From: a virus
Length of the DNA: 64,000 bases
Direction: 5' to 3' (one strand)
Virus record (IMG/VR): IMGVR_UViG_3300043673_000021
Span: 33,626-97,625 of that record
Shown in pieces: positions 31,205 to 64,000 of the stretch. A model generated the notes under the pieces. That model searched no databases, had not been told where the DNA came from, and saw nothing but the letters and a program-made list of their open reading frames with translations. The translations under genes were made by a program, and so were the position numbers. Numbering within the stretch: position 1 is the stretch's first letter; every line of letters starts with the position of its first letter.

Positions 31205-31963
31205 CTAGACCCCCTCCCCTTCCGCCGCGATAAGCGCGTCAACGGCGCGAGCGAGTTCCACGCGGACGCCGGCAATGGCAGCCGCCACGAGTTTCGTGTC
31301 AACCTCAGATACGATGACCTGCGCGGCACGGTGATCAAGTACCCGCTCTAAAAGCTTGGATATCCCCTGATTCTTGATCTCCGAATGGACCTGAGGATCA
31401 GAGAATATTTCGCGCATGTGCGCGCCGAGAACTTTAGCCGATTCAGCTTCAGCCGCGGCCAATGCGCTCGGTGTAATTTTTTGCAGTCTATCTTTAACGT
31501 AATCGGCCGTCCACATGTCGGCCATCTGGACAGACATGCGCTCAATGATCACCTTCTCTATGGCACTCTTGGCAGCCGACCTCATCTGGCGATCAAGCCA
31601 ATGAGGCATATCGTAAGAGCGAAAGGCTTCATCTATTGCCAACCGCCAATCGTCTGCCGCCTTTTCTTTTCTGGCAACCTCTTCAGCCCACCACGTCACG
31701 AATTTATCCGTCTTACAGAACTCGCGTATGTCCGCTACGCAATACCGGATCTTTGGCCGGGAATCCTCATTGTTTGGGTCGTAGATAAAGACTGGCTGCA
31801 AGCCCTCTTGCGAGCGGCAGAACCCCTGAAGAGCTTCAGGAGTGATCCCGAAGAATGCCTTAACCTCTGAGGTCGTTAGAAGATAGCCATCGCTCAGTTC
31901 GGCGGTATCTTCTCGTGTCGCTGGCCAACTATGGGGCGTGTAGTTATTTCGGGTTCTACTCAT
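31205..31963 (-). CDS. Hypothetical protein, possible MerR-like HTH near the N-terminus
   Basis: GGGAG RBS before MSRTRNN; LLTTSEVKAFFGITPEAL...IRYCVADIREF; credible part of the 800-aa track ORF. Confidence 0.6.
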   Translation of the reverse strand: MSRTRNNYTPHSWPATREDTAELSDGYLLTTSEVKAFFGITPEALQGFCRSQEGLQPVFIYDPNNEDSRPKIRYCVADIREFCKTDKFVTWWAEEVARKEKAADDWRLAIDEAFRSYDMPHWLDRQMRSAAKSAIEKVIIERMSVQMADMWTADYVKDRLQKITPSALAAAEAESAKVLGAHMREIFSDPQVHSEIKNQGISKLLERVLDHRAAQVIVSEVDTKLVAAAIAGVRVELARAVDALIAAEGEGV

Positions 31964-31982
31964 CGCAACGTCTCCCTTCTGG

Positions 31983-32237
31983 ATTGTCCACAAACTGTCC
32001 ACTATCCGGGCAATGTCGTCTATCGAGGACCGAAAACAACCGCAATAGCCCGTCATTTCACAAGCTAGACCGTATGCGTACGCTCTAGTGATATCAAAAA
32101 TTAGATATATTAGCAAGTGTGAAAGAGAAAAATATGAATGTTTTCTGTTACTTGGATCTTCCGACTGTCCACTATTGGCCACTTTGATAGACTGTCCGGT
32201 GAGCCCAACATGAAGATTCAACCGCCAAATAGTGGAC
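31983..32237. promoter_or_regulatory. Putative intact attP: arm-type repeats around an imperfect palindrome and AT-rich segment
   Basis: ACTGTCCACTAT at 31994 and 32164, variants near 31983, 32175, 32191 and an inverted copy near 32229; palindrome CTAGACCGTATGCGTACGCTCTAG at 32065-32088. Confidence 0.68.
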
Positions 32238-33364
32238 GCCCATCGAAGCCGACGAAGCGTACGGGACGTGCCAGAAAAGGCGACGGCTCCTTGAAACTCC
32301 GCGGCAAGATCTGGTGGTACATTATCCCCGGTGCGACGCCGGGCGCTAAGCGCATTGAGAAGTCTTGCGAGACGTCGATCTACGCAGATGCAGTCCAGAT
32401 CAAGGCGCGCGCGCTTGTGGAGGTTCGGGGAGTCCAAGCACGGACCCCCGGTATACGCGGAGCCAAATTGACAGTGGGCGATGTGCTTGACGGGTACGAG
32501 CGCTATTGCGAGAAGCAGCGCCCGCGGTCGTGGGGTTCGATGCGAACCGCCATCAAGCATCTTCGCGCGGCCTTTGGTCGAATCGTTGCCGACGAACTCA
32601 CGACGGCCGACACGGATCAATTCCGGGATGACCGGATCGCGGACGACTCCGTTACCGACTCGACCGTCAACCGGGAACTGGGATATCTTCGCGCTGCGCT
32701 CCGACGCGAAACGATAGTAACCCCGCCGCGCGTCACTCGCATTCCGTACATGCGTATGCCTAGCGAAAAGGACCTCGTCCGTGAAGGGTTCATTGACAGG
32801 GAAGATTACCAAAAGATCCTGGCCGAACTCACCCCAAGTCTTCAGGCGATTTTCGTATGTGCTTTCCATACCGGCGCGCGGTCTGGAGAACTGAAGATGA
32901 TCCAGTGGCGTCAAGTTGATTTTGCGAACAGCGTCATTGAGCTTCGCCCGAAGATTACAAAGAACAGTGACGGTCGCTGGATTCCCATTTGGGGCGACAT
33001 GCGCGAGTACCTGGAGCGGCAAAAGGCGATTCGGGACAGGGACTTTCCGGAATGCAAATGGGTTTTCTTTTGGCATCACAAATACCACCATCGGGCAATT
33101 CCAGGCGAGCCCCTGAAGGATTTCCGTTGGGCTTGGTCCGAAGCCTGCGAACGCGCGGGGTTCTCCGATCTTCTGTTTCACGACCTTCGCCGTTCCGCCA
33201 TTAAGTACGCCGATCAAGAAGCGGGGATAAGTCCGATTCGTGTTCGGCTGATGAGTGGCCACAAAACCGACGCCGTCTACTCCCGCTACAACATTGGAGG
33301 GGCAAAGGACATCGCTAAAATGGGGGCCGACCTCGATGAATCTCTTAAGCGGAAGAGGCGGTAG
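32210..33364 (+). CDS. int: Tyrosine integrase
   Basis: N-terminal arm domain (GDGSLKLRGKIWW), TGARSGE, TKN, FHDLRRS, SGHKT...RY; start placed at MKIQPP (track start 32138). Confidence 0.93.
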   Translation: MKIQPPNSGRPSKPTKRTGRARKGDGSLKLRGKIWWYIIPGATPGAKRIEKSCETSIYADAVQIKARALVEVRGVQARTPGIRGAKLTVGDVLDGYERYCEKQRPRSWGSMRTAIKHLRAAFGRIVADELTTADTDQFRDDRIADDSVTDSTVNRELGYLRAALRRETIVTPPRVTRIPYMRMPSEKDLVREGFIDREDYQKILAELTPSLQAIFVCAFHTGARSGELKMIQWRQVDFANSVIELRPKITKNSDGRWIPIWGDMREYLERQKAIRDRDFPECKWVFFWHHKYHHRAIPGEPLKDFRWAWSEACERAGFSDLLFHDLRRSAIKYADQEAGISPIRVRLMSGHKTDAVYSRYNIGGAKDIAKMGADLDESLKRKRR

Positions 33365-33366
33365 TA

Positions 33367-33597
33367 TCATGCTGCGGGGATTTCCAGTTTGAACGACTCC
33401 ATTGCCTGATCGATATCCATTCGATCCATCATCAGGCGCTTGCCCATTTTGATTACTCGAATCCGACCGCGCCGCGCCATCATGCGCATTGCCTCTGCCG
33501 AACGCCCACCGCAGTATTCTCCAGCCTCCGCTAGGGTAAAATAGCGAGCCTGAATCGGCGCTTTCTCTTCCATGTCTCTCGTTCTCATCCCTCGCAC
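33367..33597 (-). CDS. xis: Excisionase-like HTH protein
   Basis: YFTLAEAGEYCG...RGRIRVIKMGKRLMMDRMDID; converges on int. Confidence 0.8.
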   Translation of the reverse strand: MRGMRTRDMEEKAPIQARYFTLAEAGEYCGGRSAEAMRMMARRGRIRVIKMGKRLMMDRMDIDQAMESFKLEIPAA

Positions 33598-34238
33598 TCC
33601 TCCACAAATCCCGCGATCACAATCGACGGGTCGTGCCCCGCCGCACTCATATTCTTGGCGATAGCCAGGGCGGCGTCAGCCAGTTCATCCGCGGTCATCG
33701 GGATATATAGCCCGCCCGATGTAGGCTCCCACCCCTCGCAGTTGTAGGCCAAACTCGGAGCGTTAGAAATCTCCCCCTCGCGCACGATCCAAGCCGCCGG
33801 TGGAGACACGACCTGCACGGTGTGAACCTGAGAGGCAGACATGTGTGCGGGAACCCCGGACTGGAGAACTTCCCGATTGAACGCCATGCGGGCCTTCCGC
33901 AACGGCTCTACCTCCATCTTGCCGAGAATGCCTGAAAAGAAGCGATACTCCGTCAGGTCGATAGCGAACTCGGCGTCTGTCTCGGTCGCCCTCCAGTTGC
34001 TGACGTTTCCGTATATCAATTCGAGTGATACGTCCTGCCGGTGATTGTGTGGCGCAAGGCAGAATTCTGCCGTTGGCAGGTCGAGGCGTTTAAAGATATT
34101 GATCAGCCCATGACCCGGAGTCGCATGAAAAACACGCACCATACCAACCTCGTCGCTCACGCGCTCCGAGATAACCAAGCTGTCCACGCCCTTGACGTGA
34201 CAGTTCTTCAACCCGCTGATAAATTTCATATCTTTCAT
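33585..34238 (-). CDS. Cupin-like hypothetical protein
   Basis: PHNH...VHTV metal-ligand-like spacing. Confidence 0.55.
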   Translation of the reverse strand: MKDMKFISGLKNCHVKGVDSLVISERVSDEVGMVRVFHATPGHGLINIFKRLDLPTAEFCLAPHNHRQDVSLELIYGNVSNWRATETDAEFAIDLTEYRFFSGILGKMEVEPLRKARMAFNREVLQSGVPAHMSASQVHTVQVVSPPAAWIVREGEISNAPSLAYNCEGWEPTSGGLYIPMTADELADAALAIAKNMSAAGHDPSIVIAGFVEECEG

Positions 34239-50377: not shown

Positions 50378-50926
50378 ATGAAACTCACCGCCGCTTTAGT
50401 GGTGCTTGCCTCCGCGTCGATATCTGGCATTTGCCAAAGCCAAAAGGACGACCCGGGCGGCTGGAATGGTATTAAGTGGGGCACATCTCGGGCTGACGTA
50501 GAAACTCGCCTTCCGGACGCAAAAGAGATGCCTTGGGGGCCGGAGAAGTTTAACAAGAAGGTGCTGACGGTGCCCGATTTGAATGTGGCCCAGAGCCACT
50601 TCCTTGTTCGGTTGTTCTTTTCAAAGGCCAACGAATTCCAGGGAGCAAGGCTTGAATCTGTTGCCAAGCCGACCGAGCCAAGTTACCTCGTCAAGGAACT
50701 GGCCAAGGTTACGCTTCTGGGTGCGCTGACCGACAAGTACGGAAATGATTTCAAATCCCATATTGAGCCAGAGGGTTCAGGCGGTGGATTAACGGAGACT
50801 TGGCAATGGATGTTCCCGTCTACCTCCATCACCTTGACGTGGACCCATTACCGGGCACCGAACTACAGAGACCTTGACAGCACGAGCGTTGCCTACTCTA
50901 TCCGCGAGAAACTGGAAGGCATATGA
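50378..50926 (+). CDS. Secreted hypothetical protein (possible superinfection-exclusion moron)
   Basis: Signal peptide; GWNGIKWGTS...LTDKYG. Confidence 0.65.
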   Translation: MKLTAALVVLASASISGICQSQKDDPGGWNGIKWGTSRADVETRLPDAKEMPWGPEKFNKKVLTVPDLNVAQSHFLVRLFFSKANEFQGARLESVAKPTEPSYLVKELAKVTLLGALTDKYGNDFKSHIEPEGSGGGLTETWQWMFPSTSITLTWTHYRAPNYRDLDSTSVAYSIREKLEGI

Positions 50927-55021: not shown

Positions 55022-55708
55022 ATGCAACTTAACGGAACCATTGTAGCCGCTTTTTGTCTGCTTTCCTACGCTTCGCCGTGTCAGGCAAGCACAATCATCG
55101 TCACCTGGGTGCAGAACCTGGACTTGATAACCACCAGCGTACAGCCCGGTGTAGTAGGTGTTTCAGCCGGCGATCCAGTCCCAGGACTTGCCGGGCATCC
55201 AACGATCACCTGGACCATGACCACCAACACCCAGCAGGGATTTTACGGAGGCCTGTCCTTCACTAATCCGGTCATGAATCAGGACGCGATCAACGACGGT
55301 GTGATCCCGCTTGGCGGCAGTATTGAAGACGAGGAATTCAGCCCAAGTGGAATCCCTGAATTATTCGAGATCGCTTCATATATTCAATCTTCCGTGGATA
55401 CTGCGGCATCGCTCACAGGAATTTATTGGTTCGACTACATCACTAACGACACCTGCCTACAATACCCCTGCACGCAGACGATGCACAACCCATACGGATC
55501 GGCGTCTTTTGGAGCCAACAGCTTCCCCTTAGCGCGTTACCTAGCTCAGACCACAGACACCTTCGTCACGGTGCTTGTGCCGAACCCTGAACCGGGAACG
55601 ATCACTCTGATGGCGATCGCGCTCGTTACTGGGTTATCCCGGAAAAGTTACCTTGCAAAAACGAGAGCCCGACGAAGCCCAGCTGAGGACCGTAACGCGA
55701 GGTGTTGA
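55022..55708 (+). CDS. PEP-CTERM sorting-signal protein
   Basis: Signal peptide; C-terminal NPEPGTITLMAIAL plus basic tail; GGAGGG RBS and TGATAGAAT extended -10 upstream. Confidence 0.78.
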   Translation: MQLNGTIVAAFCLLSYASPCQASTIIVTWVQNLDLITTSVQPGVVGVSAGDPVPGLAGHPTITWTMTTNTQQGFYGGLSFTNPVMNQDAINDGVIPLGGSIEDEEFSPSGIPELFEIASYIQSSVDTAASLTGIYWFDYITNDTCLQYPCTQTMHNPYGSASFGANSFPLARYLAQTTDTFVTVLVPNPEPGTITLMAIALVTGLSRKSYLAKTRARRSPAEDRNARC

Positions 55709-58700
55709 GGATGGTTGCGGTCGCAATGCCCAATGGACCCATCGTGTCTCCAAACCGCCCGTTGATCGAATACGGCGACTTTACAACATAGTTCACCGTG
55801 TCAACGAAGATGCTCGACGTAGAAATACTCTGGAACGAATGCGTCTCAAGCGCGTTGGCCTGCATGCTGTTTGTCGACCCCACCATCGTGAATGTCTGCG
55901 GAGTTACGCCTGTAGAAAACAACCAAGAAGGCGCGCATGTGCTTGCATTGTAGTCTGAGAGATTGAAGATCGCACTCGGCTGTCCTGTAAAGGCCTGCTG
56001 ATCGTTGGAAAGCATTATGCAGTTCGTGGAGCTATTGACCCAGATGTTGTTCCACACCTTGAGGTTGATAACTTGGTTGGCTGCCCCACCCCAACTCATA
56101 AGCGCCGATGTGCCGCTGTTGAACCTGAACAGGTTGTTGTGTATCTCCGTGCTATCGGATAGGACGCCGCCGGTCCCGCAGCAGATGGGAGCTATAAACC
56201 CGTCGATTACATTCGAGTTTAGAAAGGCCACCTGTGGTGGCGCGGAAAATGGAACTGAGTTAAGTTGGTTAGTCCCGCTCCACTGAAATATCTGGTTAGC
56301 CGTAATCCAGTTACGGCTGTAGGTATTACCGCTTCCAAAAGACGACGATGACTTGTCGTAGATCCCTTGGCCGTTGTCGTGAACCCAGTTATCAGAAAAG
56401 GTGGAAGTCGTCGTAGAGTAAACCTTTATACCGGTCGCGTTCAGCCGGTTAGTGCCACTCGTAGAGTTGAATCCAGAAATCTCATTGTGGTGAACGTTTA
56501 TATTGGTTGCGGCCTCTACGATGACCCCTTGGTAGTTAGGATCGGTGTCGCCGGTCAATGGCGGGGTGATGGTTCCGCCGATGAGTTTGTTATAGGAGAA
56601 TTCCACATCAGTTGTAGAGCCGCCAACGGCACCCAGCCTAGACACTGTTACCTCAGCCGAAACGGCATTTGTGCTTGAGGCATCTAGGATGAACCCAGTG
56701 ATTAGAATGTGAGAGAACAGCGTTCCGATTAAAGGCGGGGCGAGTTCTTTTGTGGAAGTTCCAGCATATGCAATCGTGACCGATTCGCCGGGATAGGGCT
56801 TCATGGTTATCCGGTTGCCAACACCGCCATCACGGACAGGGGCAATGTACGAATTGACGCCGCCGCCGCCAGCGATCGTGCTCAGCGTTGGGTAGGTGCC
56901 CGCCCTGAAGTACAGGATATCGCCGGGATGAAGAATCTGGCACGCTGCGCCGGGAACGTAATCACTCGGATTCACTAGATCGGGCAGTCCGAACGGTGCA
57001 GCGAAAGTCCCAGTGCCCGCGCCTGAATGCGTATCTACGTAATAGCAAACTCCCCCTCCTGTTGCTTCACACGTTCCAGACTGCGCAATATTCCACGCTG
57101 TCGAGTCTGCTACGGATGCTGAAAGAGATTGCAGGAGCAGCGTGGAAGAGTCCAACTTGGTTGCCGTGTAATCGGTGCCCAACGTTTTGGAAACCCCGCC
57201 TACTGTGATGGTGCCTGGGACGGCGGCTGTCCAACTGGCGACCTGGAAGACGGGGTAATGCTGGATGTTGTGCGTTGTGAAGCTGACGCCGCTCGTGGCT
57301 GTCATGACGTACGCGCCTTTGAGAAGGTCGAAGCCGTTCGTCACATCTGCGCCGGTCCCAACTGTTCCCGTGGTCATAGTGGGCGCAACGATGTCATGAT
57401 ACTCTGTCGCCTGCTCTTGCGCTGTTGCGATTGAAGTGATACCGTTGTCTCCAACTCGCATAGAAAGGTAATGGGAATAGACATCAACGCCCACGCTCAG
57501 TGGCGCTGGAAGGTTCATGTCCCATTCTGTTCTTATTCCTTTAAAGTACTGTGGGGTGGACCCGAACGGATAGACATACGTATCAGCAGGGCCAGCCAGA
57601 AGAAGCATGTTAGTCTTCATCGCGACATGGTAATCAACAACGCCACCAATACAGTTAAGTGCAGCGCAGTGAGATACGTCTCCAACAGTTGGCAGGCCAG
57701 GGTTACCGGCACTAATACAATCATTGCTCGCCGGGAAACTGGAAGTTCCGGCTGATGAGTAAAGCAAGAAAGTTTTGTTGCTTACGTTATTCGGTGGTGG
57801 ATCTTGCCACATCCACAGCCAAGGGGATGGGGATGGTGGAAGGAAATTGCTAGTTCCAGAGCATGGATTAGGCCCACCAGACCAATTGTTAGCGATGGTT
57901 TCCAAGTTACCAGCGAACGCCCATGTGCCATTAAGAATGGGTTCTACCCCTACGCCACCCGGAAATCCCCAAACTAGAGGAGCTTGGCCGTCTGTTCCTG
58001 TGTAGGAGAACTTGGTTGTTCGATAGATTTTGTCCGGGGCTTCCATTGAGAAGTACTGGTCCACCGATATGCAGCAATCGGTTACGGCAGTATTCGTCCC
58101 GAAGCGTATGGGTACGAAGTGGTATTTGATGCGCTTTCTAAGATTGTTATCTTCGAGAACCGTAAGGGTGCCAGGACTCGGACCCGTGCTTCCACCACCG
58201 GAGTATCTATCAGTCGTGTCGTGGTTAGTCCAGTCCCACTTATCCCAGATGCACCCGGTATCAAGTCCGCATACACTGTACTGCTGGGTTGAATCACTCT
58301 TCAGGTCCCACAGTCTAGCAATGCCTTTGTATTGTCCCAATGTAGGATCAGGAGATCCTACTGGCCCATCTCCACTCCCAATTTCAACTGCATAGTGCCC
58401 TGGGAATGTAACCCTATAGCCAGTGCCTCCTGGATTAACAGACTTAGTTAGAGTTGGGTTAGCAGCAACTACAGCGAACGCGCCGAGATCGGGCGATCCA
58501 TCGGTGGGAGAGCCAGCCGCCCGCAATGCTGGGTTCGTTGGGTAGTATCCCGGCTTGACAAATGCGAGGAGTGCCGCGATGTTGTACGCCGAGTTATAGC
58601 CGGTCGCGTCGTTGATCTTTGCAAGTTCCGCCAACGCACAAGCTCCCGTCCCATCACAACCGAGAGTCGCGCCCCACGACCCGAGAGAGCGGTTACCATC

Positions 58701-60203
58701 TACGAACCACGGATCGGCAATGATGTCGTGGACGCCGTATGCCGTGCTGGTGACAGGCATGTCTCCGCCGCCAATCAGATGGTAAGTGGACATCCCCGTT
58801 ACTACGTTCCAGCCCGCGTTGTAGTCCATGCTGGTCACCGCCTGCGTGGCGTGGGTCGTGCCGGAGACGTCCTGCATCTGGTACCCTAGGTAATTCTGTT
58901 TATGAACGCAGAGCATGTTTCGGTAGACCGCGTACATATTAGCGAACGAAGTAGATGGTTCGCCAATATGACCGCAGGCCATCTGCACCCCGGCAATGAT
59001 TGTGTTGTTTTTTACGATCACTCCGGTTACGGAAACGCCGGATGACATAAGCTCAGAAGTCAAAGTGCCGGACGCAATCGTCAGGTTGTTGGTGACTATG
59101 GTTCCCGTATTAGGCACTACCATGTCTCCGGTGTCGTCTGGTAGGGAGTAGTCAGTCTCGAAAATATTACTAGTGACCGTTGTCCCAGTGTCAGCCATGC
59201 TCAGCATATGAGGATTGCCGCTGCAAGCGTAAAAATAGTTTCCGCTTATGACGCTAAGGCCAACGGTCATTGTGGTAGCGCCACCGAGAGCCCCGTTTGG
59301 AATGGTGCTACAGGGCTGCATGATGAAATTTCCAGTTATAGTGTTGGTCTGCGCTGCATCCTCAAACACCTGATACTTTGTAAGGTTTCCTGTTACCGTA
59401 TAACCCGACGCCGAGATGTTAAGAATACCGTCCGTCAAAACGTTGTTTGTAAACTGCCGCAGGTGCCCGCCTGTGGGGTTCACGCCAAAGAGTGAAACTT
59501 CATTCCCTACATGCAACGTATTTGTGAAAGTTACACCACTAATCACGTAATCGTCGGTCGCGTTGCCGTTGTTGCCGATATTAACTTGCCCACTTAGGTC
59601 AACAGCCCCAGCCCACACAATCGAACTCACATTACCGTTGCTGCGAAACGTACCGGCATACTGAGAAGCGCTGCCAAGGTGCGACCAATTCATATGGGGC
59701 CAGGTGATGTTATACCCAGACGCGAAGTCAATCCCCATGTCAACGAAACCAACGCCTAAACCTGTAGTCGAGATGGTTGAGGGGGCCAATGCAGTTGCGC
59801 TCGGGCCTGTCCAGGTGAGAATCCCAGTCGCCGTGTGGATAGAGAATAAATCGCCGCTGGACGCCGTGATAAAATTGACCGCCCCATTGTCAATGAACAA
59901 AACATTGCCAATCGTACCCATACTTCCATAGAGTTTTAATTGACCGCCTGGATCGATTATGAAAGTTCCACCTGTTATGATTAGGCCATCCCCAGAGCCA
60001 GAGCCACATGACAAGGGGAAGCCACTGCGAACTCTGATTGTGGCCGTTGAAACGACCGTGCATGTATCGCCATTACCGTGATTCGGCGCAACACCCCCAA
60101 CCCAGGAGCCACCCGCGTCTGCGTTGCCTCCGCTCGAGGTCGAGGTGATGCTGGCCGCAAAGCAGGAAGAGAGAGAAAGCGCGACAAGGATAGGAAGCTT
60201 CAC
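55626..60203 (-). CDS. Large beta-helix (pectin-lyase-like) fibre/adhesin protein with signal peptide
   Basis: Many xNNxI parallel beta-helix repeats, YYVD...GT..APF, LHPGDILYFRAGTY; N-terminal MKLPILVALSLSSCFA. Confidence 0.75.
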   Translation of the reverse strand: MKLPILVALSLSSCFAASITSTSSGGNADAGGSWVGGVAPNHGNGDTCTVVSTATIRVRSGFPLSCGSGSGDGLIITGGTFIIDPGGQLKLYGSMGTIGNVLFIDNGAVNFITASSGDLFSIHTATGILTWTGPSATALAPSTISTTGLGVGFVDMGIDFASGYNITWPHMNWSHLGSASQYAGTFRSNGNVSSIVWAGAVDLSGQVNIGNNGNATDDYVISGVTFTNTLHVGNEVSLFGVNPTGGHLRQFTNNVLTDGILNISASGYTVTGNLTKYQVFEDAAQTNTITGNFIMQPCSTIPNGALGGATTMTVGLSVISGNYFYACSGNPHMLSMADTGTTVTSNIFETDYSLPDDTGDMVVPNTGTIVTNNLTIASGTLTSELMSSGVSVTGVIVKNNTIIAGVQMACGHIGEPSTSFANMYAVYRNMLCVHKQNYLGYQMQDVSGTTHATQAVTSMDYNAGWNVVTGMSTYHLIGGGDMPVTSTAYGVHDIIADPWFVDGNRSLGSWGATLGCDGTGACALAELAKINDATGYNSAYNIAALLAFVKPGYYPTNPALRAAGSPTDGSPDLGAFAVVAANPTLTKSVNPGGTGYRVTFPGHYAVEIGSGDGPVGSPDPTLGQYKGIARLWDLKSDSTQQYSVCGLDTGCIWDKWDWTNHDTTDRYSGGGSTGPSPGTLTVLEDNNLRKRIKYHFVPIRFGTNTAVTDCCISVDQYFSMEAPDKIYRTTKFSYTGTDGQAPLVWGFPGGVGVEPILNGTWAFAGNLETIANNWSGGPNPCSGTSNFLPPSPSPWLWMWQDPPPNNVSNKTFLLYSSAGTSSFPASNDCISAGNPGLPTVGDVSHCAALNCIGGVVDYHVAMKTNMLLLAGPADTYVYPFGSTPQYFKGIRTEWDMNLPAPLSVGVDVYSHYLSMRVGDNGITSIATAQEQATEYHDIVAPTMTTGTVGTGADVTNGFDLLKGAYVMTATSGVSFTTHNIQHYPVFQVASWTAAVPGTITVGGVSKTLGTDYTATKLDSSTLLLQSLSASVADSTAWNIAQSGTCEATGGGVCYYVDTHSGAGTGTFAAPFGLPDLVNPSDYVPGAACQILHPGDILYFRAGTYPTLSTIAGGGGVNSYIAPVRDGGVGNRITMKPYPGESVTIAYAGTSTKELAPPLIGTLFSHILITGFILDASSTNAVSAEVTVSRLGAVGGSTTDVEFSYNKLIGGTITPPLTGDTDPNYQGVIVEAATNINVHHNEISGFNSTSGTNRLNATGIKVYSTTTSTFSDNWVHDNGQGIYDKSSSSFGSGNTYSRNWITANQIFQWSGTNQLNSVPFSAPPQVAFLNSNVIDGFIAPICCGTGGVLSDSTEIHNNLFRFNSGTSALMSWGGAANQVINLKVWNNIWVNSSTNCIMLSNDQQAFTGQPSAIFNLSDYNASTCAPSWLFSTGVTPQTFTMVGSTNSMQANALETHSFQSISTSSIFVDTVNYVVKSPYSINGRFGDTMGPLGIATATILNTSRYGPQLGFVGLSFLQGNFSGITQ

Positions 60204-61288
60204 TGGATGATTCTCCGACGCACTGCGCTAGTAGCTGATTGCTCGGAACTGACTGTGGCCCATGTCGAAGTCGACCCGTAGTTACCCCACTCTGCGGAGA
60301 CCTGGGCATCCGACATATTTAAACTCGATACGCGAAACTCATCTTCAAGACCTCCGAAAGGTTGGCCGAGGGCATGACTTGCTCCGAGGTTAAGGGATGT
60401 CGCGGTCAGGGTCTGTGCCGTAATGGCACCCGATACGACATTTACGCCATCAATATAAAGGGTTCCAGTTGTGCCAACTCCCTTTTGTACAATTTGGTGC
60501 CAGTTACTATTGGATGGAGTTGTAAAAGTGAGGAATGCAGAGTTGAAATAGGCGTTCGTTCCGCTTGAAACTTGCGTCAGCCATTGCGGAAAGTCGTCCG
60601 AACTCATTAGGGCTGCTGTCTGGCTGTTCAGCGTTGCCGACCACACCCATACTTCAGCCGTAAAGGTAGCCTGATTAAATGCGGGGAAAGCCACGTCCAC
60701 CACCCCCGCTCCTGGCAGCGAAATCGCCCCGCCCGTGATTCCCGTAGCGGATGCTACCCCCGCGCTTCCAAGATAAGTTCCGTTGTTGCCATTGGATGTC
60801 GAATCTGCCGTCGTGCAGGTTATTATGCAGCCGGAGTTGATGTCGGATAAGTGCGCCACCACAAAGTAAGCCGCAGGCCACACCTGAGATGCAGTGCCTC
60901 CCTGCCATGTGCTCGCAGATGAGTTGTAGCACTCCCAGATCACTAACCCGCTGGTGGCTGTTGGAATTCTGACATGCACAATACGCGCCCCGAGGGTTGT
61001 GGTGGGCAACTCGAATTGCCAACGAAGAGGCAAGGCACAGCCCGCGTCAGATGTAAAGATATCGTCCGCCGACACAGTCTGCCCGTCGTATTGAGTCGCC
61101 ATATGTTGAACTAACCCGTTCGGAGTAACGGCGAGGTGTGCATCTGTCCGGTTCACGAGGTACATGTAATCAGTGATGGTCGCTGCCAGTGTTGGCAGGG
61201 TGTGTGAAATACAATTGTGGAACCCGTTACCGCATGCACCGAACGCCGGCAAGCAACTCAGGAAAATCATCGCCAGTATAAGTCTCAT
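60200..61288 (-). CDS. LamG/ConA-like (DUF2341-associated) protein with signal peptide
   Basis: ADSTSNGNNGT, FTAEVWV, WHQIV, LYIDG, FGGLEDEFRVS; N-terminal MRLILAMIFLSCLPAFG. Confidence 0.8.
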   Translation of the reverse strand: MRLILAMIFLSCLPAFGACGNGFHNCISHTLPTLAATITDYMYLVNRTDAHLAVTPNGLVQHMATQYDGQTVSADDIFTSDAGCALPLRWQFELPTTTLGARIVHVRIPTATSGLVIWECYNSSASTWQGGTASQVWPAAYFVVAHLSDINSGCIITCTTADSTSNGNNGTYLGSAGVASATGITGGAISLPGAGVVDVAFPAFNQATFTAEVWVWSATLNSQTAALMSSDDFPQWLTQVSSGTNAYFNSAFLTFTTPSNSNWHQIVQKGVGTTGTLYIDGVNVVSGAITAQTLTATSLNLGASHALGQPFGGLEDEFRVSSLNMSDAQVSAEWGNYGSTSTWATVSSEQSATSAVRRRIIQ

Positions 61289-63750
61289 TAGTTGATCACC
61301 CCATAAACAAAGAGCTTGACGTCTTTAGTGGTCCCATTTGCCGTGCCAGATAAATCAACCTGGGAGTTTGCGGCAATGGCTGTGTTTGTCATCGATCCAG
61401 CCACGATGAAGCCAGCGCTACCCCCCGTACCGGAGACGCTTCCTGGCGCAACGCACGTAATCGTAAATAAGGTTGTGCCACCGATCTTTGCCGTCACGTT
61501 CTGACTACCAGCGTCCGAGATACACGTGGCCTCAACCAACGTCTTTGCGTTGGAGTCATTTACCGCCGCCGCGTGGTTGGTGAGGTCTGCGGTCACGAAA
61601 GCCGCCGTCGCATTCTCTGCGCCTACCTCATAACTTAGAACGTTGACGTTTTGGGATGGAGTCGAGTAGATTGAGAGCTTAATATCTTTTGTTGTTGCGT
61701 TGGCCGTGCCAGACAGGTCAAGTTGGGAATGCGCGGCGACGGCCGTATTCGTCATGGATGCCGCGATGATGTTTCCTGCGGAGCCACCAGTCCCAGAAAC
61801 ACTTCCTGGGGCTACACAGGTAATGCTGAATAGCGTCGTCGATCCGATCTTGGCGGTTACCGTCTGCGACCCAGCGTCGGAAATGCACGTCGCTGATGTA
61901 AGGGTTCTGGATATGGAATCGGTGACGGAGAAGGCGTGATTCGTAAGGTCGGCCGTCACAAAGGCAGCAGAGGCGTTCTCGGTGCCAACTTCGTAACCGG
62001 ATAACAGCACAGGTTTCGCTGCTGCCCTGCTCGTGTCGGTCGGATGCACGTGATCTGCGCGGGCTGCCGTGGTTCCTGTGCCGACCGCGCCTGATCCACT
62101 ATCGACAAGTGGGGTGGAACTCGATAGTACAACCCCGCTACCAACAGGCGTGACAGTACGAGTGCTGTCCATTATCGAAAACACGCCAGCATTATCAGCA
62201 TTGAAAAATATGACGTACCCATTGGTGACCGGAGTTGGAACACTGGCGACCGTGCGCCACAAGCCACCCGCGCCGAAGGCTGTTCCAGAATTGAAGCCGC
62301 CAGTGCAATTCATGACAGATCCAGCTGCAGTGCAGCCCGAGTCGGCAAGCGATCCACCACCAGCAGCAGACTGTACCGCCCCGGCTGAGCCAGCCGCCGA
62401 GCTTCCGCCACCCGCACCCAGCCGGAAGTTCGTTCCGTCATATGCGAAGATGTAGCCCGTTCCTGCGATTAGTGCGCCCGACGCGATATTAGTTGCGCCA
62501 TCGGCTGCTTTCAGGGTCTTCGCTCCGAGCCCATTGACGTTCAGAGTTGCGGTTCCTGTGTTCGTTGTCTGCGGGACGAAGGTAACGATCAAGCCCGCGA
62601 GCGTTGTGACTGTCGGGCTTGGACTCGGACAGGTGTAAGTCGTCGTGCTTCCGGTGGCGTCCACGCACAGTGCGTTATTGCCGCTGCCCGGGGTTCCTGC
62701 TCCAGTCGCCCCCACGGCCCCCGCCAGATTGATATTCCAGCTGGAAAAAGTGCCCGACCCGCTAACCGCATCAGCGATAAGCGCCAGCGACGTACCGCTA
62801 TATGAAACGAGGTTTCCTTCGACATACGCGCCTCCGCCGGTCGATGATACCCGAACCCTCGCCCCCACGGTATAGGCAAGTCCCGCTTGGGTAGTCAGGC
62901 TGATGCTGCCGGTGCCGATGGTGATGGAGGTGGCGGAGGTTGCCGCATAACCCGGCCCTATGGGACCGCTCGATCCCGCCAGCCCCACATTCCCTGAGGC
63001 ATTCAGATTCCAGTCTGCATGTGATCCTGAGCCGTTCGTGGTGTCGACTGTGATCACCAGCGTGCTCCCGCTATAGGAGGCGACAATGCCCTCCATGTAC
63101 TGCGTGGTGTCGGATGCCGACGATGCTCGCGCCCTGACGCCGGCAGAATATGCGAGTCCGGTCTGTGTGGCGAAGGTCTTAGACCCGGTGCCAATCGTTA
63201 GCGAGGTGGTCGACGTCGCCGCATAGCCGGGACCAGTTGAGCCGATCGCGCCTGCTGCCCCAGCAACCCCCGGCGTCCCCCACTGCAACACGACCGTCGT
63301 GGCCGCCGGAGAGCCAGTTCCGACCACCATGATGTCTACCAAGTCTCCCTGTGCGACTGTGAAGGAGTGCGTTAGATCTGAGCATGAAGTGGCCGGGTTG
63401 CTGATCGTGCAAGTGATCACCTGCGAAGAACTGTTCTTGCGCCACGTGAACGTCAACGTTGCGGACCCTCCCGGCGTCGTGCCGACAGTTGCCGAGAAAT
63501 TGGCGATCGGGCCAGCAATGACAGATGTCGCTTGGACCAAATTCTCGGTTGAATTGGCGAGCACGCCACCGCCCGGCGGCAGGAAGAACGTTCCGGCGTA
63601 GTTGGCTGATGGAGCGGAATAGGAGCCGCTGCTACCGCTAGATCCGGTGCCGCCAGTGTTGCAGCCAAAACACACGCCAAAGCCGCCGATCTGGCCAAGC
63701 AGCGACGGGCTTGCGAGCGCAAAAATGATTACAAGTTTCTTCATCGACAT
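61288..63750 (-). CDS. Gly/Ser/Thr-rich tail-fibre-like protein with internal repeats and signal peptide
   Basis: Short GxxGxxG runs, NTGTATLNVNGLGAK, AARADHVHP, two duplicated domains; N-terminal MKKLVIIFALASPSLLG. Confidence 0.75.
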   Translation of the reverse strand: MSMKKLVIIFALASPSLLGQIGGFGVCFGCNTGGTGSSGSSGSYSAPSANYAGTFFLPPGGGVLANSTENLVQATSVIAGPIANFSATVGTTPGGSATLTFTWRKNSSSQVITCTISNPATSCSDLTHSFTVAQGDLVDIMVVGTGSPAATTVVLQWGTPGVAGAAGAIGSTGPGYAATSTTSLTIGTGSKTFATQTGLAYSAGVRARASSASDTTQYMEGIVASYSGSTLVITVDTTNGSGSHADWNLNASGNVGLAGSSGPIGPGYAATSATSITIGTGSISLTTQAGLAYTVGARVRVSSTGGGAYVEGNLVSYSGTSLALIADAVSGSGTFSSWNINLAGAVGATGAGTPGSGNNALCVDATGSTTTYTCPSPSPTVTTLAGLIVTFVPQTTNTGTATLNVNGLGAKTLKAADGATNIASGALIAGTGYIFAYDGTNFRLGAGGGSSAAGSAGAVQSAAGGGSLADSGCTAAGSVMNCTGGFNSGTAFGAGGLWRTVASVPTPVTNGYVIFFNADNAGVFSIMDSTRTVTPVGSGVVLSSSTPLVDSGSGAVGTGTTAARADHVHPTDTSRAAAKPVLLSGYEVGTENASAAFVTADLTNHAFSVTDSISRTLTSATCISDAGSQTVTAKIGSTTLFSITCVAPGSVSGTGGSAGNIIAASMTNTAVAAHSQLDLSGTANATTKDIKLSIYSTPSQNVNVLSYEVGAENATAAFVTADLTNHAAAVNDSNAKTLVEATCISDAGSQNVTAKIGGTTLFTITCVAPGSVSGTGGSAGFIVAGSMTNTAIAANSQVDLSGTANGTTKDVKLFVYGVIN

Positions 63751-63813
63751 TTCCTTTTTGTGTGCTGCTGGAATTTCAGTTGGCGACTGCTGAATGCCAA
63801 GGTCGGGGGTTTT

Positions 63814-63999
63814 TCAAAAGATGATTGCCGGAGAGCTATTGCTGGTAGCGATTGCGGTCAGCGAAGACATTGTAGGCGGGCTGTTCTGGTTGGTGTAATT
63901 TTGGAGTATCCAGTCACCGGACCTAGCGACACTGGATACTCGCGCTTCGTCGTTGACAGAATTAGCAAACTCTGAAAAACCGTCATCCATGACGAAGAA
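63814..63999 (-). CDS. C-terminus of another LamG/DUF2341-like protein (partial)
   Basis: Manual translation ...NDEARVSSVARSGDWILQNYTNQNSP...PAIIF*. Confidence 0.7.
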   Translation of the reverse strand, partial: FFVMDDGFSEFANSVNDEARVSSVARSGDWILQNYTNQNSPPTMSSLTAIATSNSSPAIIF

Positions 64000-64000
64000 A

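Follow-up and report, generated by a model that had tools for sequence, protein, structure and literature searches.

Why would a tailed phage equip proteins that are built from tail-fibre modules with export signals? Tail fibres and tailspikes decide the host range, and the usual assumption is that both their folding and their assembly take place in the reducing cytoplasm. The question is raised by a group of three genes in a window of 64,000 nucleotides, which comprises bases 33626-97625 of the 97,625-bp IMG/VR virus record IMGVR_UViG_3300043673_000021 (80% complete and 'linear' according to CheckV). The genes lie on the minus strand in the order P0001 (820 aa; 61288-63750), P0002 (362 aa; 60200-61288) and P0003 (1525 aa; 55626-60203). 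An earlier note on this DNA had described them as coupled genes on the strand of the terminase gene, and this description proved correct: the junctions are formed by TAATG (1-nt overlap) and GTGA (4-nt overlap), and the three genes can thus be considered translationally coupled. The explanation that we prefer over each single rival, with a probability of roughly 0.4, is that the proteins are exported and subsequently attach to the virion. The data directly show the signals, the pairing of the cysteines, the phage context, the homology of the modules and their recurrence in other phages, cultured ones among them. The export, the cleavage and the disulfide bonds are what we infer; the attachment is speculative.

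The N-termini of the three proteins provide the starting point. P0001 begins with M(SM)KKLVIIFALASPSLLG|QIGG, P0002 with MRLILAMIFLSCLPAFG|ACGNG and P0003 with (V)MKLPILVALSLSSCFA|ASIT, where the bar indicates the likely cut. The signal-like part spans residues 1-19 of P0001 (63694..63750, minus strand, with G19|Q20 as likely cut), residues 1-17 of P0002 and residues 1-16 of P0003. All three have a K or R in the n-region and a hydrophobic core of 13-15 residues that contains no D or E, and small residues precede the likely cuts (LLG|Q, AFG|A and CFA|A, respectively). The anatomy of a Sec signal cleaved by signal peptidase I (SPI), i.e. a positively charged n-region, an uncharged hydrophobic h-region of about 7-15 residues and small residues at -3/-1, therefore fits all three. 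Moreover, the early mature part of each protein is free of K and R, and the cores are too short for a membrane anchor. The RR of the twin-arginine translocation (Tat) pathway is present in none of the three N-termini. Lipobox-like strings occur in P0003 (L-S-S-C, residues 11-14, corresponding to an unusually short signal of 13 residues) and in P0002 (F-L-S-C, residues 9-12), where an SPI cut beyond the string is equally possible. The claim in the earlier note that each complete protein of the cluster carries a Sec-type signal is thus borne out by a hand-made rule, which requires that the best 10-residue hydropathy window of the N-terminus reaches 2.0 or more, that D and E are absent as far as the end of this window and that one or more K or R occur before or just into it.

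The feature would be hidden by automated annotation. The source gene calls begin P0003 at V196 and P0002 at M7, and truncate 59619-60203 and 61271-61288 of the window, respectively, by which the signals are removed or shortened. The start of P0003 at V196 is wrong, because the conservation among homologues extends upstream of it: P0005 and P0007 align to P0003 well before this residue. In the upstream part only codons 1, 64, 95 and 102 can start translation, and codon 1 is alone in having both a GGAG motif and a stop-start overlap. Shine-Dalgarno (SD)-like GGA/GGAG motifs are found 5' of the genes of P0001 and P0003, where the second ATG of P0001 (M3) has the better spacing to an AGGA.

Signal-like N-termini are rare on the contig and are concentrated in specific places. 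They are found in 8 of the 147 open reading frames (ORFs), and six of these eight are located in two clusters at the contig ends. The set consists of P0001-P0003, a 153-aa protein, a 68-aa protein in the interval between the tail and lysis genes and a 182-aa protein on the plus strand, to which a 372-aa protein and a truncated ORF were added by eye. The rule gave no hit for the terminase, portal, capsid, tape-measure, tail-assembly, J-like and 1640-aa proteins. A phmmer comparison revealed no paralogy among the signal-bearing proteins of the contig except for a weak pair of LamG proteins. The 182-aa ORFan (50378-50926, plus strand; signal-like MKLTAALVVLASASISGIC|QSQ) lies among convergent plus-strand ORFans downstream of the cluster.

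The form of the cut site connects the signals to the presumed host lineage. According to the same rule, 20 of the 105 homologues of P0001 bear a signal, and in 18 of these 20 the signal ends with a small residue followed by Q. The same ending is found in 11 of 12 CarboxypepD_reg/TonB-receptor genes (L100-L111) of a metagenome-assembled Bryobacteraceae (Acidobacteriota) genome, G004, that was reached via a relative of the homologue P0047. Judging from these cut sites, the phage signals copy the habit of the host lineage. A Q-rule has been described for Bacteroidetes only (PMC5837995); a comparable habit may exist in Acidobacteriota too. In addition, P0006, a homologue that lacks the first ~580 residues of P0003, bears a signal-like sequence of its own at the new N-terminus.

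The distribution of the cysteines points in the same direction. The 12 cysteines of P0001 form six pairs with a spacing of 3-23 residues (p = 2e-4, permutation) and those of P0003 are similarly paired (p = 1e-4), which confirms the close pairing that had been noticed before. In total, cysteines are no more frequent in these proteins than elsewhere in the phage (1.52% versus 1.51%). After removal of the signal, 12, 6, 6 and 2 cysteines are left in four of the proteins and 23 in P0003. An alignment of P0003 with three homologues showed that the variable cysteines are gained and lost in pairs, namely 516/522, 1212/1217, 187/189, 682/688, 1341/1342 and 1395/1423. Moreover, the median cysteine content amounts to 1.71% in the 20 signal-bearing homologues of P0001 versus 0.43% in the others of the 105 (p = 5e-8). 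Considering the signal anatomy, the host-type small-residue|Q cut, the paired cysteines and the link between signal and cysteine content among the homologues, it is highly probable, as far as can be told from sequence, that P0001-P0003 are exported and fold oxidatively outside the cytoplasm. Export followed by disulfide formation in the periplasm, as had been proposed in the earlier note, is thus the best reading of these data.

P0001 is a fibre-like protein of mosaic build. Behind the signal a Gly-rich linker, in which a CFGC motif occurs, leads to a jelly-roll N-domain; the remainder comprises collagen-like spacers, a pair of shaft repeats, a module at residues 351-445, the ADHVHP motif and a duplicated C-terminal domain. 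The (G-x-x)4-6 runs are located at residues 33, 158 and 253, and ADHVHP is located at residues 565-570 (62041..62058, minus strand), so that both motifs reported earlier were recovered. The two shaft repeats of ~90 aa (residues 170-345; 62716..63243, minus strand) are 52% identical to each other and are common to signal-less prophage tail fibres, e.g. in Bradyrhizobium, and to signal-bearing proteins; the signal-less relatives carry a different, hydrophilic N-domain. The module at 351-445 is shared mostly with signal-bearing proteins. The motif ADHVHP is part of a block of ~35 aa (ADHxH) that was found at 217 viral loci. The C-terminal tandem duplication (residues ~586-820; 61291..61995, minus strand) consists of copies that are 79% identical and have a Cys pair each, and the homologues of this domain (P0014, P0040 and P0047) are all signal-bearing. 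No match to P0001 was obtained among cultured phages by tblastn, nor did sequence searches of the PDB with P0001 and P0003 return anything.

The N-domain of P0001 (residues 42-160; 63271..63627, minus strand) contains a conserved Cys114/Cys123 pair and was modelled by AlphaFold2 (AF2) as a beta-sandwich or jelly-roll, with a predicted local distance difference test score (pLDDT) of 85-94; the model of the full protein is confident for residues 42-345 only. The family counts 2469 representatives, and about half of the best 146 are signal-bearing. The domain is located directly behind the signal in the P0001-like subfamily and elsewhere in other proteins. A large family of proteins of ~420 aa (P0122-P0258), about half of which have signal peptides, contains three tandem copies of the domain and may represent a single-chain pseudo-trimer. 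All matches of the model in Foldseek and VIA had Z values of at most 7.6, which is in the noise range; these include jelly-roll capsid and cement proteins, TNF/C1q-like domains, the phage 7-7-1 fibre, PBSX XepA and the N-terminal regions of the P560 and K1 depolymerases. The model thus suggests a 'jelly-roll-like' domain and nothing closer.

The other two proteins seem to be of a lectin type and a glycan-cutting type. The LamG motif that had been noticed in the cluster was confirmed for the 362-aa protein P0002 by a match of residues 196-331 to Laminin_G_3 (PF13385; 48.1 bits at a cut-off of 27.6, E = 1.8e-12), and P0002 is a predicted concanavalin-like LamG lectin. P0002 and the 372-aa LamG protein from the opposite end of the contig are distant paralogues, and two remote homologues of P0002 contain an additional DUF2341. 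In P0003 the signal is followed by repeats in the N-terminal region, then by a middle domain and finally by a C-terminal domain that is probably a right-handed, Pel9A-like beta-helix. The beta-helix proposed earlier for the cluster is weakly supported in the 1525-aa protein: P0003 itself has no Pfam match, and the indications come from its homologues, i.e. from sub-threshold matches of P0007 to Beta_helix (23.8 bits at a cut-off of 25.9) and of P0006 to NosD (18 bits), and from the precomputed assignment of P0006 to the Pel9A-like family PF22842. For P0003 the ESM Atlas points weakly (0.77) to beta-helix families that are commonest in Acidobacteriota. The AF2 model that was built from 4 sequences of the family, headed by P0006, is poor, with a mean pLDDT of 39. 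A scan against PHROG gave no match for P0003 and weak matches only for P0002. Relatives of P0003 were not found in viral contigs, genome contigs contain a match of 20 residues only, and a search of metagenome contigs with the P0003 alignment and P0005 yielded nothing useful. Therefore, the designation 'tail-fibre-like cluster' stands in part. It holds for P0001, which has the fibre modules; P0002 and P0003 are without them, and the cluster is located past the lysis genes and not in the tail module.

That location follows from the organization of the contig. The late genes on the minus strand encode, in this order, the large terminase, portal, capsid, a probable tape measure of 1046 aa, a tail assembly protein, a J-like tail protein of 1209 aa (PF13550), a 1640-aa protein, small ORFs and a glucosaminidase endolysin. 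Behind the endolysin a 153-aa and a 372-aa (LamG) protein are encoded, both with signal-like N-termini, followed by a truncated ORF starting with MNKLILTLLSVAMMYGQ. At the other contig end the window starts its minus strand with the 3' end of a LamG-type gene upstream of P0001 (last 61 codons; 63814..64000), of which 155 nt match the 3' end of the gene for the 372-aa LamG protein (contig 95-1213) with an identity of 99%. The two copies (63814-64000, minus strand, in the window and L003:95-281) diverge within the last 10 codons and are followed by P0001 in one case and by the truncated MNKLILTLLSVAMMYGQ ORF in the other, both signal-bearing. This is the sole repeat that connects the cluster with the rest of the contig. 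It implies that the cluster, which has the strand and operon direction of the tail genes, is the far end of the late operon, reached via a cassette junction. The junction may reflect either two paralogous loci or two strain variants of one circular genome; likewise, the duplication may represent either a point of cassette swapping or a strain bubble that broke the assembly. Host-range loci typically have cassette junctions of this kind. The truncated alternative cassette was not found in viral contigs by an exact-pattern search.

On its other flank the cluster is bordered by convergent ORFans, one of which has a phage zinc-binding domain, and further on by replication, methylase and helicase genes, while the GC content is even across the window. 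Promoter-like sites are no commoner than in shuffled sequence. The phage is probably temperate, since the window encodes a tyrosine integrase (PF00589; 32138-33364, plus strand, E = 1e-15) and a serine recombinase (PF00239; 6110-6853, plus strand, E = 9e-41). The integrase ORF is overlapped by an 800-aa ORF on the opposite strand (31205-33607) that is probably spurious. A switch of the invertase type was considered and rejected, as the serine recombinase lies 50 kb away and no inverted repeats surround the cluster. The 1640-aa protein (L003:6396-11318, minus strand), encoded right behind the J-like tail protein, lacks a signal and has no Pfam match and no useful PHROG match. Its N-terminus (…DFYNDFGCACDGTTDDT…) resembles that of tailspikes of the pectate-lyase type, which makes the protein a candidate depolymerase of the virion itself. 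Close relatives of the capsid protein were not found in genome or viral contigs, and among cultured phages only distant matches from Brevundimonas and Thermoanaerobacterium were obtained. Overall, the record probably represents a siphophage of ~98 kb from soil with a host among the Acidobacteriota; clear SD motifs as found here argue against a host from the Bacteroidota.

The arrangement is not restricted to this phage. Only 2-3 of 82 ADHxH fibre ORFs in viral contigs look signal-bearing, and these sit in runs of 3-5 large signal-bearing genes. Loci with the N-domain of P0001 again show runs of signal-bearing, cysteine-rich proteins behind the structural genes. More specifically, the same layout is carried by G002, a viral genome of 53 kb that is rated complete. 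There the last genes of the late operon are those for the tape measure, a protein of 874 aa, a J-like protein (1393 aa), an ORF of 84 aa and a 388-aa tail protein. Directly behind them come three signal-bearing proteins, one of which (1504 aa) has collagen repeats, a pectate-lyase domain and matches to tail-fibre PHROGs down to 3e-39. The pattern also extends to cultured phages. The Acidobacteriota podovirus Tunturi_1 (host Tunturiibacter) encodes five signal-bearing proteins between a tail protein and the lysis genes, namely gp12, gp13, gp14 (annotated as tail spike), gp16 and gp17 (annotated as virion structural protein), and four of the five signals end with A|Q. Signals are absent from the core tail genes of the siphovirus Tunturi_4 and present in gp113 ('tail protein') and gp114, which lie in a separate cluster. 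Taken together, the seven proteins comprise 149-1190 aa with 2-32 cysteines, and in five of them the signal ends with A|Q or G|Q. Scanning the Tunturi proteins against PHROG gave nothing useful. The paper on these phages (PP887698, PP885687) makes no mention of signals and contains no virion proteomics (PMC11924767). Thus, a large set of soil phages appears, on this evidence, to route disulfide-stabilised proteins of the fibre type through the secretion machinery of the host.

How could such proteins end up on a virion? In the explanation that we prefer, the late operon of a temperate siphophage would have P0001-P0003 as its distal part. A Sec-type signal peptide would direct each product across the inner membrane, where signal peptidase would cleave it, leaving P0001 with an N-terminal Gln like the exported proteins of the host, and the proteins would then fold with disulfide bonds outside the cytoplasm. 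They would constitute modules for the recognition or cutting of glycans: P0001 as a collagen-spaced fibre, P0002 as a lectin and P0003 as a probable beta-helix of the pectate-lyase type. The proteins would wait in the periplasm until holin, endolysin and spanin merge the compartments, and would subsequently bind to the particles built in the cytoplasm, as accessory fibres or depolymerases. Attachment is favoured because of the kinship of the fibre modules, the position and coupling within the late operon, the fibre slot that is occupied by signal-bearing proteins in G002 and Tunturi_1, and the cassette junction. As a general statement, that fibres or depolymerases of soil phages are Sec-exported, oxidised in the periplasm and attached at lysis, either to the tail or as head fibres via the jelly-roll N-domain, we regard as doubtful.

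Several considerations weigh against this explanation, in particular against its last step. The particles of tailed phages are assembled in the cytoplasm, and we know of no tailed phage for which attachment of fibres after lysis has been documented. Followed via the contig-end repeat, the cluster comes past the endolysin and two small secreted proteins and is outside the tail module, the J-like (1209 aa) and 1640-aa tail-tip proteins without signal are themselves candidates for host recognition, and the docking-type N-domain of the signal-less fibre relatives has been replaced in P0001 by a different jelly-roll domain. The integrase makes expression from a prophage possible. These features favour a role outside the virion, and so do the relatives on a bacterial chromosome: a run of signal-bearing, cysteine-rich proteins of up to 1117 aa in a Bryobacteraceae genome (L090:2904-11208), which includes a relative of P0047, adjoins genes resembling GDP-mannose dehydratase and GDP-fucose synthase, i.e. 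sugar-nucleotide genes, and is a bacterial counterpart of the phage proteins, probably in a locus for polysaccharide synthesis. The number of cysteines in mature P0003 (23) is odd, and the signals were assigned by the hand-made rule and not by a trained predictor. Taken strictly, it is rather unlikely that the proteins join virions. The closest rival, which we consider only slightly less likely than the preferred explanation, holds that they are exported but never enter virions and act on the envelope of the infected or lysogenic cell, where they could cut or bind exopolysaccharide or capsule from the periplasm or the surface, by which the progeny would be released instead of trapped, mask or destroy receptors (superinfection exclusion) or serve as adhesins of the lysogen, similar to bacterial surface fibres. 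This would suit a probably temperate phage and a cluster that is separated from the signal-less tail tip and lies behind the endolysin, a frequent place for accessory 'moron' genes. Secreted proteins that act on glycans typically contain LamG and beta-helix domains, and the P0047 relative in the probable polysaccharide locus agrees with such a role. Moreover, there is precedent in the mosaic adhesive trimer (MAT) fibres of Bdellovibrio, which show that signal-bearing fibres of the phage type can be devices of the cell surface (PMC10769870), and in the Q-rule signal-peptide genes of Porphyromonas phages, which have been read as envelope modifiers (PMC10367356). However, the genes share the orientation of the late operon and are coupled with it, promoter-like sites stay at the level of shuffled sequence, and signal-bearing proteins fill the fibre or tailspike slot in G002 and Tunturi_1. 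The exchange of modules with genuine fibres and the swapping of cassettes fit receptor-binding proteins under host-range selection, and a Pfam search found no match to the type IX secretion system (T9SS), autotransporters or PEP-CTERM, that is, no signal for secretion across the outer membrane.

Two further rivals deny the export or the phage origin of the cluster. It is improbable that the N-termini are no working export signals and that the proteins are ordinary virion fibres of the cytoplasm, in which a hydrophobic N-terminus would serve for docking to the tail or for transient association with the membrane during assembly, or would be removed by a phage protease. This would keep the textbook route of assembly, signal-like N-termini of Porphyromonas phage capsid proteins have indeed been read as substrates of a prohead protease (Matrishin et al., PMC10367356), and the source gene caller picked other starts for two of the three genes. 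Against this, the conservation upstream of V196 speaks for the longer form of P0003, the form of the cut site copies that of the host, and the pairing and the paired gain and loss of the cysteines point to an oxidising compartment. In addition, signal and cysteine content are tightly linked across the homologues, P0006, with its changed domain architecture, again has a signal, and the signal-less relatives of the shaft repeats have another, hydrophilic N-domain. That the cluster does not belong to the phage genome at all, but represents host DNA bordering a prophage or a chimeric end of the assembly, is very improbable. It does lie at the end of a contig that is rated 80% complete and 'linear', and it is in bacterial clusters that the ESM Atlas has most of the beta-helix proteins like P0003, be it with weak scores (0.77). 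Nevertheless, the 155-nt repeat (99%) of the LamG gene with which the late operon finishes on the left, with no other repeat present, ties the cluster to the tail and lysis end, the other flank consists of phage ORFans, including the one with the zinc-binding domain, and then of replication genes, the GC content is even and analogous clusters are found inside complete phage genomes. The possibility raised in the earlier note that these are host genes outside the phage is thus countered by a contig that is viral throughout.

If the explanation that we prefer is true, the completion of the virion includes an extracytoplasmic step, and assembly outside the cytoplasm would be new for tailed phages; if instead the proteins act on the envelope, fibre-derived proteins would be used as secreted tools on the host. 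The annotation of host-recognition genes in soil viromes and the reading of phage-host links in Acidobacteriota would change in either case, and such proteins would have to be expressed in the periplasm rather than in the cytoplasm. As the cultured Tunturi phages share the pattern, the question is open to a direct test at the bench.

A comparison with known systems shows which parts are familiar. The cluster shares with the canonical fibres of Caudoviricetes the shaft repeats of P0001 (45-65% identity), the G-x-x spacers, the ADHxH block, the mosaic build and the co-orientation with the late structural genes. Canonical fibres differ in that they start with a hydrophilic docking domain, lack a signal peptide and are poor in cysteine (median 0.43%), whereas P0001 has a signal peptide and a jelly-roll with a cysteine pair in place of the docking domain. 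The Tunturi phages have similar runs of signal-bearing proteins next to tail or lysis genes and a similar GC content (55-56%), and in Tunturi_4 the signal-bearing genes are likewise apart from a signal-less core tail module; yet, homology to P0001 was not detectable at the sequence level by tblastn. The MAT fibres of Bdellovibrio bacteriovorus are phage-fibre-like mosaics as well (PMC10769870), and by layout alone P0001 resembles them in the succession of signal, Gly linker and a beta-sandwich of 120 aa. They are, however, encoded by chromosomal genes of the predator, displayed on its own surface and in many cases end with an S74 chaperone-protease (PMC10769870), whereas the cluster is encoded by a phage and neither S74 nor another C-terminal chaperone family was found by Pfam. 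The Q-rule genes of Porphyromonas gingivalis phages (PMC10367356) are phage-encoded, use the Sec route of the host and have a host-like cut with Gln at +1, and lambda lom and bor and secreted endolysins are also phage-encoded proteins on the Sec route of the host. All of these are small proteins of unknown, envelope or lysis function that are not fibre-like and not linked to host-recognition modules. A description of secretion signals on fibre-type proteins of tailed phages was not found in the literature, where Matrishin et al. 2023, Caulton et al. 2024 and the secreted endolysins represent the nearest published cases. New here are a siphophage in which signal-less tail-tip proteins coexist with a signal-bearing distal cluster, the cassette junction inside a LamG gene, the covariation of paired cysteines and the definition of a post-signal jelly-roll domain family.

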